NCBI GenBank assembly: GCA_024679065.1
Contig: JAGIQG010000015.1
Coordinates: 77,562,001-77,626,000 of the forward strand
DNA length: 64,000 bases
Source: Sphyrna mokarran
Lineage: Eukaryota
Direction: 5' to 3'
Every line of letters starts with the position of its first letter. Position 1 is the first letter of the stretch. Under the pieces are notes generated by a model, which saw nothing but the letters and a program-made list of their open reading frames with translations, was not told the DNA's origin and made no database searches. This document shows positions 45,201 to 62,578 of the stretch, piece after piece. The position numbers were made by a program, and so were the translations under genes.

Positions 45201-46732
45201 TAAAGAACCCCTCGCCATCTCCCTGAAGAACATTTCTTTCTTCGGTTGCTTAACTAGTTTTCATGCCGGGAGCAGCTTTTGAACTGAAGCTTAGGCAAGA
45301 CAAGTAATTGCGTTGGGTGACATCTTGTTGACAACAAAGGCGGAATGCAGATCTTTGGAGGATTTCCCTTCCAATAACCTGAGTATAGATCGAGAAATAA
45401 TTCATAATGCAGTCGCCAAAGCATTGGCGAAATTATTGTAGGTCCTTTTAGAAGGTGCATTCTGAAATAGCAGTGCTTTCTTTAGGATAACAAGCGATTT
45501 GACAATGGCAATTTTGCGTCAGAAGTCTGTCAGGGGCCAGGAGGGTTTTTTTTGGGCTCCTGGTTCACTTCTCCCCATCCCCCAGTGTCACAACCATGAG
45601 ACATTTGTTACATGCCATTCGTATGAGTTCTCTTTCTTGCACTTACTTAGACATAAAAGACAGTGGAGCAACTTGGCTGTGTTTCAAATGCAAACATTTG
45701 GCTCCACACACAGATTGCTAACATTTTAGATAGCAAAAAATGTGAGGGATTTTTTTTTGGATGGAGGGTTAGCTTGTGCCGATAAATTAAAGACAGGCCT
45801 GAGATGATTAATTCCTCGGATTTTATAAATGATTTTAACTGGCTGTTTGGGAAGAGCAGGGGAAGTGCCAATTTTCTCTTAAAGGACCATCAAGGTGTAT
45901 TATTATTTGACAAATCAGAACTGAAATCCAAGGTTAAATGCAGCACTTTGATGGTGTTCCAGAATAATGATTGTCCAACTTTTATTTAATTTTAGTTTTC
46001 AAGACACTCATGACGCCAACACCATTTTTAAAAAATTTTTCTCCAATATTTGTTACCCAAAAATGGCAAAGTGTATTAGTGCATTGTTAACCTCCAAAAT
46101 AAAAAAGGTACGGCGTGTTGAACTGTAGAAAGAAGTCATCTATTTTCAGATGTCTTTTAGTACCCACATTCCTGATGGGCATCTACCCACCCCCCACACT
46201 GGGTGTGGAAATCTTTGGTTGAAAAGGTCACTGTTGCCAGTCGCTAACCTCTAAATGACCTCTTGACTTTACAGTCTAAAACTGCAGGAGCTGCGAATGA
46301 GCATGAGCTTTTCTGTACCAGCACTTACTTGCTGCTGTGGTGATAAAACTTCAGACAGCCTAATTGATGGGCTTTCTGACATAACAATACCTTGTGAAAG
46401 TAGAGAGTGGCAAATGCCTGGTCTTCATTTATGGACAGCTGGAACAGGAGTTGCACCACCCCACCCTCCCCCAGCCACCCCATGAGGAGAAAGCAACCTA
46501 TTTAAGGCAATGAACTTTTACTATGTTTGTGACTCTTATACAGGCAGACATTTCGTTTTAAACACTAACATTTGAAAGAGCTGATGTCAGTAACCTTTAA
46601 ATCAACAGATGACAAAATGTGCTTGTATGCAGGTGTCTTTTTTTTAACACTTTCAACAAATTAAAAGCGTGGGGGTCCTGAAGTTGAGTTTGCAAACTAA
46701 GGAATTAAAATTTACCCTTCTTATCGTTGCAG

Positions 46733-46791
46733 GTTCATTAACGCCAGGAGAAGGATAGTACAACCCATGATCGACCAATCAAATCGAGCAG
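46733..46791 (+). CDS. MEIS2: MEIS2 coding exon (59 nt; homeodomain helix 3; equivalent to human exon 10)
   Basis: Acceptor ttgcag|g. Completes the W codon of the previous exon and reads (W)FINARRRIVQPMIDQSNRA. Donor is cag|gcaagt (GC-AG intron). Phase fits both neighbouring exons. Confidence 0.97.
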
Positions 46792-47019
46792 GCAAGTCCC
46801 AAGTAGTAACTAGATTCAGATCCTGCAAGCATAAATCTGATTCAAATTATTCCTGACAAGTTCCTTCACCTGGTAGATAAAACTGACAGCTCGGCATTCT
46901 GGAAGAGTTTTCACTTCAGAATCCCAATGTGATCTCAGCTAAACTGCTGCCAACGGATTCCCCTCACTCTTACAGAAGTTGCTTTTATTTATTTACTCAC
47001 TTATTTATCAGTTAATTGA

Positions 47020-47210: not shown

Positions 47211-49027
47211 TGGTAGCTGGGTTAACAGCCTTGCACCACAGACAGCTTGCCAAGTGTGTATAGCTACTGACAATCTGGCTATCTTCCTTGGCCATTATTG
47301 CTTTCTTATGGCTCAGGACCTCTTGGTGAACTTATTTCCCCATTAGTGATAGCCATGGATTGCTTGCAAAAAAAAAATTCAAGTTCACCATAACGTACTT
47401 GCTGTTTACCAGCTGGTTGGGTGAAACATGAGGAACATATTTTGCTCCAGTAATTCTCCAGAAAATGTAGACATGAGTATAAAGCAGTGTACAATGTGTC
47501 CGCTTATATCTTTCCCAAAGTTCATCAATGGGCCAAATAGCCTTTTGCTAATATAATTTCACAATTATATGAACCCTCAACCTTCAAATTCAGTCCCCAG
47601 TTTGTTGTTACATTGTTTGAATAAAAATTCTAACTAGGATGAGTATATTGCAAATTAATCCCCCCTGAAAAAATGCAAAAATCAATTTGATTTTTTTAAA
47701 ATTTGGCTTATTCACAATATTTAAACAAAGGATATGGTGTGCTGACTGTGGAGTTCTGTCCTTCTGTATTGGGTTGGGATAAGCTTTATTGAAGTTTTGA
47801 TTCTCATACTGTTTTGATTTGATGTTGATTTGCACCCACTGCTGTTATTTATTCATGGGAATCGTATGCAGCCTGCTGAACATGGCCCTCTGCTGGGATC
47901 AGGGATGGTACTATAGTGTGAAACGGAACAGGGAAACCAGAGCACTTGCCTTAAGTGTTCTGAGAATTCTGATTTTATTGGGCAGGTTAAAAATTAATTT
48001 CAAAGATGTGCAATAAAAATCAGTGAATTCTAACCAGCATAAGAACACTTCCTGCACTCCCCCCTGATGACAGCACTGATTCCAGCTGGGATATATATAC
48101 ACAAGTTGGTCTCGATGTATCTTCACACCCTTTTTGTTTATTACCCTTTGGGGAATGGTGGGGGAAGGATTCTTGAGCCGATTATAGCCTGTTGAACCAC
48201 ACTGAATGCTTCTTCCATGACCAACAAGTCCTGGCATTGGACTTGAACCCTGAGCTTCCGATCCAGTGGTTGGGGTGCTATCCACTGTGCCATAAGATTT
48301 CTTAGATCCACAAGTGCCTTCTGAGTATCTTGCCCAAGTGGCTTTTTCCATGCAGGAGTCTATACAGAGGGTGTTATCGGGTGTGTGAAGAATCACAGTC
48401 AAACCTAATGCTTTCATTCCCCGGATCTACATATACATAAAAACATACTATTGCAAAGAAACTAAGACTGGGAGGCTTGTCTGAATTTTTAACAGATTCT
48501 CCCCTTCTCCCTAGCTCAGAGGTACTGAAACCATTTTCAGTGCTCAGGTTACCTGGGTGAACATAGACTACTGGTTGAATCCTTAACAGACATTAAAAGG
48601 GAAGTGTTATATTTTAGAAGATAATTCTAGGAACAGAGGGCTGGCACATGCATAATGGACCAAATAACCTTTCACTGGACTGTAATTTCTCAATTAATAT
48701 GGACCTGGAACCCTCAAATTCAGTCCCATATGGAAAAAATGCATTTAACAAGTGCAAGAGCTGAGGAGATGCCCAGATTATTTATATTTGGTCATTGCAA
48801 TGTTAAATCATTGCACAGAAATTATAAGCATTATGCATCAAGTCTTGCATAACTTGATATTTAAATAAATACATTCCACATTAAGTCTTTATGCTTCGAA
48901 TGCAATTAAAGGAAGTCCTACAATTAGTAACGGAATCTATTACTTATAATCTGGGCACAGTGCCCTGTTTTGTAATCTTAGAATAAAAAGATACGGGGCA
49001 AATTCTCCCAAAACATGTCTAAGCATT

Positions 49028-49154: not shown

Positions 49155-50167
49155 ATTGTTCCCAGTGTGAAAACCAGTGAAATTCCCACTGGGAGCCTCA
49201 GAGCGATTCAGTTCGCAATCCAGCCACACTTAGGAAATTTTCTGATGCCCGAGGAAATTCTCTCCTCTCACATTTAGAACTCTTTCTGGGTTGGGGACCT
49301 AAAGCCGCTGGCTAAACCATCCCCTCAGTGATCAGGGGTGATCCCAGAGTAAAGTTGAAGATCCCCTGCGGACATTGTGACCCCAATAATATGGGGATTA
49401 CCACCAACCCTTGATCCTGGAGGGGTAACATTCCCCTCATCATTAAATGTCCTGGTCACACCGTCCAACCCCCACCCCCAACAGCCCACAGGAATGAGAG
49501 TCACTGCCCAGTCAAGTCCCCAACCATTTGGGAGTTTCAACGTCCTTTGAACCCCCTCTTCCCCCCGGCAAGACCACCATGTCTGGTCTCCATTTGTGGT
49601 GTTTCTCAGCAGGTTCCCGCTGCCCCACTGGCAATGATTATTGTAAGGTACTAATCTGGTTCATGCCCCTGCGGCATGTGAACCAGGTTATGTCTTGGTG
49701 TGATGGGCTGGGAGAATCCCAAAGGATGTTCTCCCCGGTGCTGAACAGGCTGTGACCCCAATTCTGTGCATCCGTGTGGCCCCAGCGCTTTGTGCAGGAG
49801 TGTGCACGCCTGGAGAACTGCAGCCATGGACTCTACAAGCACAAGAAAATGTCTTATTCTTGTGTAAGTTTCCAAGTAATCTTGCTTTGGAGGTGAGCTT
49901 TTACATGAGTTCTTACACTGTCCTTTTACAGTAGATGGCTGCAGCTTTGATATCTTTCCACCTGTCGGTGGGGGGGATGTTTTGAGGTGGGGGCAGAAGG
50001 CGAGGGGGCGGTGGTGAATGTATTGGGTGCTGTTTCTTTAATTATGGCATTTGCCACGTACATTTCTGGTGTTTGACAACGTATTGTGTTTGCTGTTCCA
50101 GGAGTAACTGCTGATTGTTTGGTATGTCTTTTCTTTCTCCTCTGTGTCTACGTTTGACTACAATCAG

Positions 50168-50278
50168 GTTTTCTTCTTGATCCTTCAGTAAGCCAAGGAG
50201 CAGCGTACAGTCCAGAGGGCCAACCAATGGGAAGTTTTGTATTGGATGGTCAGCAGCATATGGGAATCCGACCAGCCG
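50168..50278 (+). CDS. MEIS2: MEIS2 coding exon (111 nt; 90 nt when the second acceptor at 50189 is used)
   Basis: Translates (G)[36 protein letters not shown](G), diagnostic of MEIS2 rather than MEIS1/3. Acceptors aatcag| (50167) and cttcag| (50188); donor g|gtaagg. Confidence 0.97.
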
Positions 50279-50542: not shown

Positions 50543-50638
<96 letters not shown>

Positions 50639-52978: not shown

Positions 52979-53265
52979 GTTTACAAGGCATGCCAGGGGA
53001 CTATGTATCTCAGGGTGGTCCTATGGGTATGAGTATGGCACAGTCAAGTTACACTCCTCCCCAGATGACCCCACACCCTGCCCAGTTAAGACACGGACCC
53101 CCAATGCATTCCTATCTCCCGAGTCATCCACATCACCCAGCCATGATGATGCATGGAGGACCTGCACCTCACCCTGGAATGCCAATGTCAGCACAAAGCC
53201 CCACAATGTTAAATCCTGTAGATCCCAATGTGGGGGGACAGATTATGGACATCCACGCCCAATAG
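52979..53265 (+). CDS. MEIS2: MEIS2 terminal exon, coding part (long Met/Pro/His-rich C-terminus ending DIHAQ*)
   Basis: Acceptor cttttcag|g. Reads (G)LQGMPGDYVSQGGPMGMSMAQ...GGQIMDIHAQ*. ORF track 52990..53265. Confidence 0.98.
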
Positions 53266-60264: not shown

Positions 60265-62578
60265 GTGCAGTCTGTCTGTCTGTGCGGGTACTGTCTGTCT
60301 GGGTGAGCGGGTGATGTATGTCTGGCTGGCTGGTTGGGTGAGTGGGTGGGTGCTGTCTGGGTTATTGGGTGGTGTCTGGGTTAGTGGCTGGGTGGGTTGG
60401 TTGGTGTTGACTGGATGAATGAGTTAGTGGCTGGGTGAGTGGGTGATATCCAGATGAGTAGGTGCTGCTTGGGTGAATGGGTGGGCTAGTGGCTGGGTGA
60501 GTGAGTGGTTGCTCTCAGGGTGAGTGGGTGATGTTTGGGTGAGTCGGCCCTGCCTGTCTGGGTCCTGTCTGTCAGGTACAGTCTGGGTGCTGAGTGGGTG
60601 GCTGAATGACTGGGTGCTGTCTGTGTGGGTGCTTTCTGTCTGGGTGCTGGCTGGGTGGGTGAATGTCTGTCTGGGTGCTGTTTATCTGAGTCCTGTCTGG
60701 CTGGGTGCTGTCTAGGTCCTGTCTGGCTGGGTGCTGTTTGTCTGGGTCCTGTCTGTCTGCGTGCTGTTTGATTGGGTCCTGTCTGTCTGTCTGGGTCCTG
60801 TCTGTCTGGGTGCTGTTTGTCTGAGTCCTGTCTGTCTGAGTCCTGTCTGTCTGGGTCCTGTCCGGCTGGGTGCTGTTTGTCTGAGTCCTGTCTGGCTGGG
60901 TGCTGTCTGGCTGGGTGCTGTCTGTCTGGGTCCTGTCTGGCTGGGTGCTGTTTGTCTGGGTCCTGTTTGTCTGGGTCCTGTGGCTGGGTCCTGTCTGTCT
61001 GGGTGCTGTGTCTGAGTCCTGTCTGGCTGGGTGCTGTTTGTCTGGGTGCTGTTTGTCTGGGTGCTGTTGGTCTGGGTCCTGTCTGTCTGGGTCTGTTCTA
61101 GCTGGGTGCTGTCTGTCTGGGTCCTGTCTGTCTGGGTGCTGTTGGTCTGGGTCCTGTCTGTCTGGGTGCCGTTTGTCTGGGTCCTGTCTAGCTGGGTGCT
61201 GTTTGTCTGGGTCCTGTCTGTCTGGGTGCCGTTTGTCTGGGTCCTGTCTAGCTGGGTGCTGTTTGTCTGGGTCCTGTTTGGCTGGGTGCTGTTTGTCTGG
61301 GTCCTGTTTGTCTGGGTGCTGTTTGTCTGGGTGCTGTTTGTCTGGGTCCTGTTTGTCTGGGTGCTGTTTGTCTGGGTCCTGTTTGTCTGGGTCCTGTTTG
61401 TCTGGGTCCTGTTTGTCTGGGTCCTGTCTGTCTGGGTCCTGTTTGTCTGGGTCCTGTTTGTCTGGGTCCTGTCTGTCTGGGTCCTGTTTGTCTGGGTCCT
61501 GTTTGTCTGGGTGCTGTCGGTCTGGGTCCTGTCTGTCTGGGTCCTGTCTGTCTGGGTCCTGTCTGTCTGGGTCCTGTTTGTCTGGGTCCTGTCTGTCTGG
61601 GTCCTGTTTGTCTGGGTCCTGTTTGTCTGGGTCCTGTTTGTCTGGGTGCTGTTTGTCTGGGTCCTGTTTGTCTGGGTCCTGTCTGTCTGGGTCCTGTCTG
61701 TCTGTCTGGGTCCTGTCTGTCTGGGTCCTGTCTGTCTGGTCCTGTTTGTCTGCGTGTGTTTGTCTGGGTCCTTCTGTCTGGGTCCTGTTGTCTGGGTGCT
61801 GGTCTGTCGTTTGCTGGTCCCCGTCTGCTGGGTGTTTGTCTGGGTCCTGTTCTGGGTGCTGTGTCTGGGTCCTGTTTGTCTGGGTCCTGTTTGTCTGGGT
61901 CCTGTCTGTCTGGGTCCTGTTTGTCTGGGTGCGTTGGTCTGGGTCCTGTCTGTCTGGGTCCTGTTTGTCTGGGTGCTGTTGGTCTGGGTCCTGTTTTCTG
62001 GGTCTGTCTGGGTCCTGTCTGTCTGGGTCCTGTTTGTCTGGTCCTGTCTGGGTCCTGTTTGTCTGGGTCCTGTCTGGCTGGGTGCTGTTTGTCTGGGTCC
62101 TGTCTGGCTGGGTCCTGTTTGTCTGGGTCCTGTCTGTCTGGGTCCTGTCTGTCTGGGTCCTGTCTGTCTGGTCCTGTTTGTCTGGGTCCTGTCTGTCTGG
62201 GTCTGTTGTCTGGGTCCTGTCTGGCTGGTGCTGTTTGTCGGGTCCTGTCGGTCGGGTCCTGTCTGTCGGTCCTGTCTGTTGGGTCCTGTTGTCTGGGTCT
62301 GTCTGGCTGGGTGCTGTTTGTTGGGTCCTGTCTGGCTGGGTCCGTTTGTCTGGGTCCTGTCTGTCTGGGTCCTGTCTGTCTGGGTCCTGTTTGTCTGGGT
62401 CCGTCTGTTGTTGGCTGGGTGCTGTTTGTCTGGGTGCTGTCTGTCTGGTCTGTTTGTCTGGGTCCTGTCTGGCTGGGTCCTGTCTGGCTGGGTGCTGTTT
62501 GTCTGGCGTTGTCTGGGTGCTGTTTGTCTGGGTGCTGTCTGTCTGGGTCCTGTCTGTCTGGGTCCTGTCTGTCTGGGT
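60265..62578. repeat. 15-bp minisatellite (consensus GTCTGGGTCCTGTYT / GTCTGGGTGCTGTTT) with a degenerate TGGG-rich left flank
   Basis: Clear 15-nt periodicity from ~60700 to 62578 (roughly 125 units). The + strand is almost devoid of A. Confidence 0.97.

Follow-up and report, generated by a model that had tools for sequence, protein, structure and literature searches.

The MEIS2 locus

The window, as the whole 64-kb stretch of DNA analysed is called here, carries the MEIS2 gene of a shark in its 3′ portion (Table 1). The residues encoded by exon 11 are the same as those of shark MEIS2a at 29 of 29 positions, against 24 of 29 for MEIS1. The exon 10 whose constitutive part is directly followed by the segment analysed here is thus that of a Meis gene. 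A DNA search found this segment, termed exon 10′ below, in a single copy in the shark's own genome. Towards the end of the window (60610-62577) lies a long tandem array with a unit resembling 15 bases, in which open frames of several hundred codons occur on both strands; it looks like a simple satellite.

Table 1. Coordinates of the MEIS2 features in the window.
Feature	Position	Strand	Remarks
MEIS2 exon 9 (homeodomain)	13555..13631, start approximate	+	phase-2 GT donor after 13631
MEIS2 exon 10, constitutive part (homeodomain end)	46733..46791	+	identical in 3/3 relatives
Proximal GC donor	46789..46797, cut 46791/46792	+	8/9 consensus positions
Putative exon 10′, alternative extension of 81 nt (27 codons, in frame)	46792..46872	+	diverged, interrupted
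In-frame TGA, codon 22 of exon 10′	46854..46856	+	serine in intact shark/ray MEIS2 copies
Distal GT donor	46870..46878, cut 46872/46873	+	6/9 consensus positions
GATAAA over distal donor and TAA	46876..46881	+	AATAAA in three relatives and in MEIS1 (L002:1643-1648)
TAA	46878..46880	+	intron positions +6 to +8 of distal donor
Exon 11, two acceptors 21 nt apart (50168, 50189)	50168..50278	+	
Exon 12a, coding part including stop	50580..50638	+	
Exon 12b (13), coding part, long activation-domain terminus	52979..53265	+	

Two donors and one extension

Read on from position 46791, the frame of exon 10 continues for 21 codons to a TGA, whose next base is C, and for a further seven codons to a TAA, just as the earlier note had described it. 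It opens directly 3′ of the GC donor, and its first residues are encoded by bases of that donor. Both donors were scored against the general donor consensus. The GC donor departs from it only at the +2 C, and with this score it is not weak for its class, although it had been called a weak donor. The same nine bases form the GC donor of the MEIS1 paralog in this genome. The intron that begins there closes on an AG at 50166-50167.

Absent from the earlier note is a second donor, a GT lying 81 nt past the first and in the same phase, an arrangement which would make in-frame inclusion of the intervening segment possible. The GT occurs at codon 27 both in the window and in the shark's own MEIS1 (L002). 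Because of its position the last two codons of the frame and the TAA are intronic: what was read in frame as two residues and a stop is intronic sequence belonging to the distal donor. The matching position of the stop in MEIS1 and MEIS2, which had been read as the mark of a conserved C-terminus, arises because the sequence of the second donor dictates it. Moreover, the frame runs past this position in 20 protein records, and the stop is therefore not a conserved protein end.

The distal donor scores 7/9 in MEIS1 and, through a difference at 46876, also in the three relatives examined below, all of which differ from the window at this base (donor +4). Judged by this score, the window's species has the weaker distal donor, owing to the base at +4. 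In the shark's own MEIS1 and in the MEIS2 of the three relatives, the distal donor and the TAA share bases with an AATAAA; in the window the hexamer at the distal donor reads GATAAA and the first AATAAA occurs at 47620. One base, 46876, thus accounts for the weakening of donor and hexamer alike in the window.

An ancient and already described element

Irimia et al. (2011; PMC3140891) give the name exon 10′ to a stretch of the Meis/hth genes that follows exon 10 on its 3′ side and is bounded by a pair of alternative 5′ splice sites. The segment in the window, which likewise adjoins exon 10 and has a GC upstream donor and a second donor in phase, is very probably this exon 10′, the match being one by description of position, donor and taxonomic range. 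The element itself is not new, then, having been described in the main text of that paper, according to which GC stands at the upstream 5′ splice site in 46% of the genes surveyed, the segment is coding in cnidarians/non-bilaterians and optional in bilaterians, and its inclusion in vertebrates is very low (inclusion in human is cited there from Xiong 2009). At least nine genomic losses are given, including all Meis3 genes, and in chicken Meis2 the segment contains in-frame stops, a sign, in the authors' view, of loss still in progress; its function they left open. The words 'shark' and 'Callorhinchus' are absent from that main text, and the literature searched, which comprised papers outside subscription, contained no account of shark MEIS2 exon 10′ or its function.

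The likeness to MEIS1 proposed in the earlier note is genuine. Aligned without gaps to the MEIS1 paralog of the same genome (L002), where the matching stretch is an open 29-codon frame, the window's extension has 13 of 29 residues in common with it, and 51 of 81 bases, whilst in the next stretch of intron only 15 of 81 bases match. Thirteen identities were attained by none of 100,000 codon shuffles. When the four residues dictated by the donors are dropped, 10 identities in 25 remain, a level attained by 5 of 100,000 codon shuffles. The claimed figure of 14/29 is reached with two MEIS1-type database ORFs (P0010, P0011), and Nematostella and hemichordate records give 13-15/29. The segment is thus homologous to MEIS1 sequence. 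Its origin had been placed before the MEIS1/MEIS2 duplication, correctly but too cautiously, for it is far older, being found in protein records of cnidarians, nematodes, molluscs, tardigrades and hemichordates.

The MEIS3-like locus of this genome has a GT donor and 3/30 identities and has lost exon 10′, as have the Meis3 genes covered by PMC3140891. Among 57 loci with the exon 10 motif (three of them from this shark's genome; 29 loci without the motif were dropped), five cnidarian-type genomic loci have the segment and no donor at the end of exon 10, one spliced transcript carries it, and 42 loci without it read GT at the end of exon 10. Cnidarian-type loci L007-L011 read GA at the end of exon 10 where the two shark loci (L001, L002) have GC, and one third-base change in a glycine codon could be a simple route from coding sequence to a GC donor. 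A metagenome scan, in which 80 of 102 loci were kept, mostly invertebrate-like, gave no additional vertebrate DNA among those 80.

Insert or protein end

A third C-terminus made by read-through of the intron had been proposed, and the evidence on this comes from 292 protein records, which are automatic gene models, redundant per species, with counts that cover cluster representatives and up to 15 members per cluster. Sorted by pattern, 24 of the 292 lack the exon 10 motif and 72 lack the segment, the pattern having overlooked two segment-bearing records (P0044, P0064) and a separate sorting having put P0055 in the wrong class. Spliced models with the segment, namely those that contain the junction to exon 9 and in which the segment can be recognised, number 130. 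In 62 of these, exactly 27 residues are followed by vertebrate exon 11; 60 continue otherwise, by way of invertebrate sequence, a skipped exon 11, frameshifts or teleost read-through; and eight end within 40 residues. An end at residue 29 is seen in none of the 130. It does occur in 22 records, every one of which is without the exon 9 junction; these have the appearance of genes called from unspliced DNA, and of seven for which the upstream part was inspected, the six unnamed ones have what looks like translated intron there.

Further searches gave a similar result. The best 120 of 212 matches to exon 10 plus 10′ of the shark's own MEIS1 include no homeodomain protein ending at residue 29, and ten further clusters (75 records) no homeodomain isoform ending there. 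A search among proteins of near length for short ORFs ending at this stop returned 32 matches, none of them from this shark lineage. On the evidence of these models, exon 10′ is in all probability an internal in-frame alternative 5′ splice extension and not a third C-terminus.

It could still be that exons 10 and 10′ together serve as a composite last exon, with polyadenylation in intron 10 yielding a homeodomain protein that lacks the activation region and ends 21 residues past exon 10. Thirteen teleost Meis1 models, counted by eye (P0012, P0180, P0182, P0244, P0246-P0253 and P0275), run on past both donors to an end within intron 10; P0140 stops at the donor. The thirteen models keep alive the earlier note's idea of a MEIS1 isoform that reads through the intron, albeit not the end at residue 29 that it gave to this isoform. 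The presence of AATAAA at the distal donor in the shark's own MEIS1 and in the relatives' MEIS2, together with the common stop of the 22 unspliced ORFs at residue 30, also accords with such an exon. The lack of any spliced model ending at residue 29 argues against it, however, as do the teleost tails, which range from 32 to 151 residues and differ in sequence, and the 20 records that run past the stop point. The hexamer, too, is commonplace in AT-rich intron starts and reads GATAAA in the window, and the literature searched yielded nothing on intronic polyadenylation of MEIS1. A composite last exon consequently seems quite improbable. The teleost Meis1(b) models that read through are often the first-listed or the only isoform, and their ends in intron 10 are either real intronic ends or annotation gaps.

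A number of individual records deserve mention. In the wolf Meis2 model P0044, exon 10′ can be read over all 27 residues and is joined to exon 11, in contrast to the listing of mammalian Meis2 among the losses in PMC3140891; the ORFs P0004, P0023 and P0068 group with it as keeping exon 10′. P0020 is named Meis2 isoform X4 (Scyliorhinus torazame), yet in both exon 10′ and exon 11 it resembles MEIS1, and P0181 and P0286 look misnamed in the same way.

A premature stop shared within the lineage

The window was compared with DNA contigs of three relatives, obtained from other samples and studies (X2, X6, X7), each of which spans the stretch in one piece. The TGA is unchanged in all three. Its presence in three independent contigs indicates that it is shared by the lineage and is not an assembly error. 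An assembly error as the source of the TGA is ruled out by these contigs. The broader proposal, that the TGA is either such an error or a private allele and that the extension is intact in the species, can appeal to the fact that the comparison covers contigs of relatives, and so samples other than this species. Against it stand the same three bases in contigs from three other samples and studies, and the seven or eight further amino-acid differences that go with the TGA; its probability is close to nil.

Among the four sequences, variable sites number 11 of 81 in the extension. Exon 10 has none in 58 (Fisher p 0.003), and the flanking intron has 12 in 207 (p 0.05). Five of the 11 variable sites in the extension are of CpG type, against four of 12 in the flanks. 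The changes in the extension comprise nine non-synonymous at 58 sites and three synonymous at 17 sites, a pN/pS of 0.88 that is based on 12 changes in four sequences, each classed alone on the window's codon and of unknown polarity. There is no codon constraint on the segment among these four sequences, and a test for such constraint, which the earlier note had put forward as a check, found none. The flanks of exon 10 (46652-46997) are well conserved in the four sequences, at 12 variable sites in 207, in keeping with the conserved non-coding elements that are known to occur near exons of Meis genes.

The peptide has diverged as well. The window differs from six intact shark/ray MEIS2 copies at 8-9 of 27 residues, while these copies differ among themselves at 0-5 of 27 (mean 1.9), and its peptide is without the basic run that is kept from cnidarians to mammals. 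The MEIS1 paralog, by comparison, retains an intact copy of exon 10′, which differs at 0-5 residues from the MEIS1 of sharks, rays and chimaeras in 16 records. The TGA, the residue differences and the pN/pS together uphold one of the alternatives offered in the earlier note, that the segment is decaying in this shark's MEIS2.

That the TGA might be read through often enough to yield a full-length protein with a 27-residue insert is a further proposal. All four sequences have a C after the TGA, and the frame is then open to the donor. UGA-CUAG is the efficient read-through motif, and only the first C fits this context, the full motif being absent; nothing beyond that single C lends the suggestion support. 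The encoded peptide, moreover, is free of codon constraint and has lost its basic run, and with inclusion low and read-through low as well, hardly any protein would result. Functional read-through is accordingly very improbable.

The same segment in other sharks, rays and birds

The orthologous 27 residues are present in RefSeq Meis2a isoforms of sharks and rays (XP_043553936.1, XP_059811702.1, XP_051880896.1 and XP_048456392.1), where they are 18-19/27 identical to the window and are spliced to either exon 11 acceptor. In these the frame is open, with serine at the place of the window's TGA.

Chicken Meis2, one of the cases in PMC3140891, parallels the window, with the same paralog, the same element and an in-frame stop, albeit in an independent lineage; the stop in this shark lineage is a further, independent case. 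Intact exon 10′ is found in Meis2 models of duck, passerine and turtle (P0145, P0149, P0151, P0017, P0007), unlike chicken, and likewise in several sharks and rays. Frameshifts within exon 10′ occur in Meis2a models of Manta (P0003, P0136, P0138) and Narcine (P0140) and could be real loss or assembly indels. The Mobula birostris models join the frameshifted segment to exon 11, the model of Mobula hypostoma (P0123) is intact, and the frameshift of Narcine differs from that of Mobula birostris. Taken together, the frameshifts in rays and the stops in chicken point to repeated loss via different lesions.

Consequences for MEIS2 expression

The reading that we favour, and hold to be very probably right, is that the segment is exon 10′ between its GC and GT donors, broken by the TGA and likely decaying without selection on the protein. 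To judge by the genomic evidence it is likely no longer used for protein, which would make it one more unremarkable example of a loss known from other animals. The normal MEIS2 mRNA of this shark would be spliced at the GC donor, so that the segment is dropped. Rare use of the GT donor would leave 16 nt between the stop and the distal junction; with the 90 or 111 nt of exon 11 added, the stop would be 106-127 nt away from the exon 11/12 junction. Nonsense-mediated decay acts on stops lying more than 50-55 nt before a junction, and since this distance to the exon 11/12 junction is exceeded, removal of the mRNA is predicted. A transcript that keeps the segment would, with the TGA in frame, end after the homeodomain and lack the activation region, as the earlier note had anticipated. 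The TGA probably had a single origin, in an ancestor of this lineage; changes of amino acids and at CpG sites would have accumulated afterwards, and the window's species would also have weakened its distal donor at +4.

A shortened MEIS C-terminus is also produced by alternative splicing of exon 12a (PMC3140891; bioRxiv 10.1101/2024.09.09.612108). This is a separate cassette exon, which in the window runs from 50580 onward; it is highly included and Rbfox-regulated in mouse, and is not to be confused with exon 10′.

Use of the distal donor might, on the other hand, be a regulated poison choice, in which inclusion of the TGA lowers the dose of MEIS2 via nonsense-mediated decay. Such a role needs no protein constraint, and the predicted distances of the stop from the distal junction and, at more than 100 nt, from the next one are suited to it. 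The TGA and the distal GT are common to all four sequences, the three relatives have no indel within the 81 nt, and positions 46859-46875 are invariant. The invariance and the kept GT fit some retained splicing role, although the counts are too small to be set against chance. Since no more than 11 of 81 sites vary, chance would be expected to leave the three bases of the stop unchanged. Poison exons are typically highly conserved, unlike this extension, which is no better conserved than its flanks (11/81 against 12/207 variable sites, with three relatives only). The weakening of the distal donor at +4 in the window's species, and the repeated loss to which the ray frameshifts and chicken stops point, also speak against regulation. 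It is therefore unlikely that the choice is a regulated one.

A more elaborate scheme would have the distal donor double as a stop and poly(A) signal kept in the MEIS1 and MEIS2 of jawed fishes, providing a three-way switch between skipping the segment, including it and ending in it. Fixation of the TGA would then have made the 'include' arm either a dose-lowering poison or a source of truncated, activation-less MEIS2. If true, this would account for the long retention of a rarely included segment, but the chances that it is true are likewise small.

Significance

On the preferred reading, that of a decaying exon 10′, the window adds one more independent loss of this element, in cartilaginous fishes, to the pattern published in 2011 (PMC3140891). 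A larger importance would follow only if the stop-bearing form were proved to be regulated. In sharks and rays, intact, frameshifted and stop-bearing forms of MEIS2 exon 10′ exist side by side, with MEIS1 intact. This series is natural material, if of modest use, for the question of function raised in the main text of PMC3140891.
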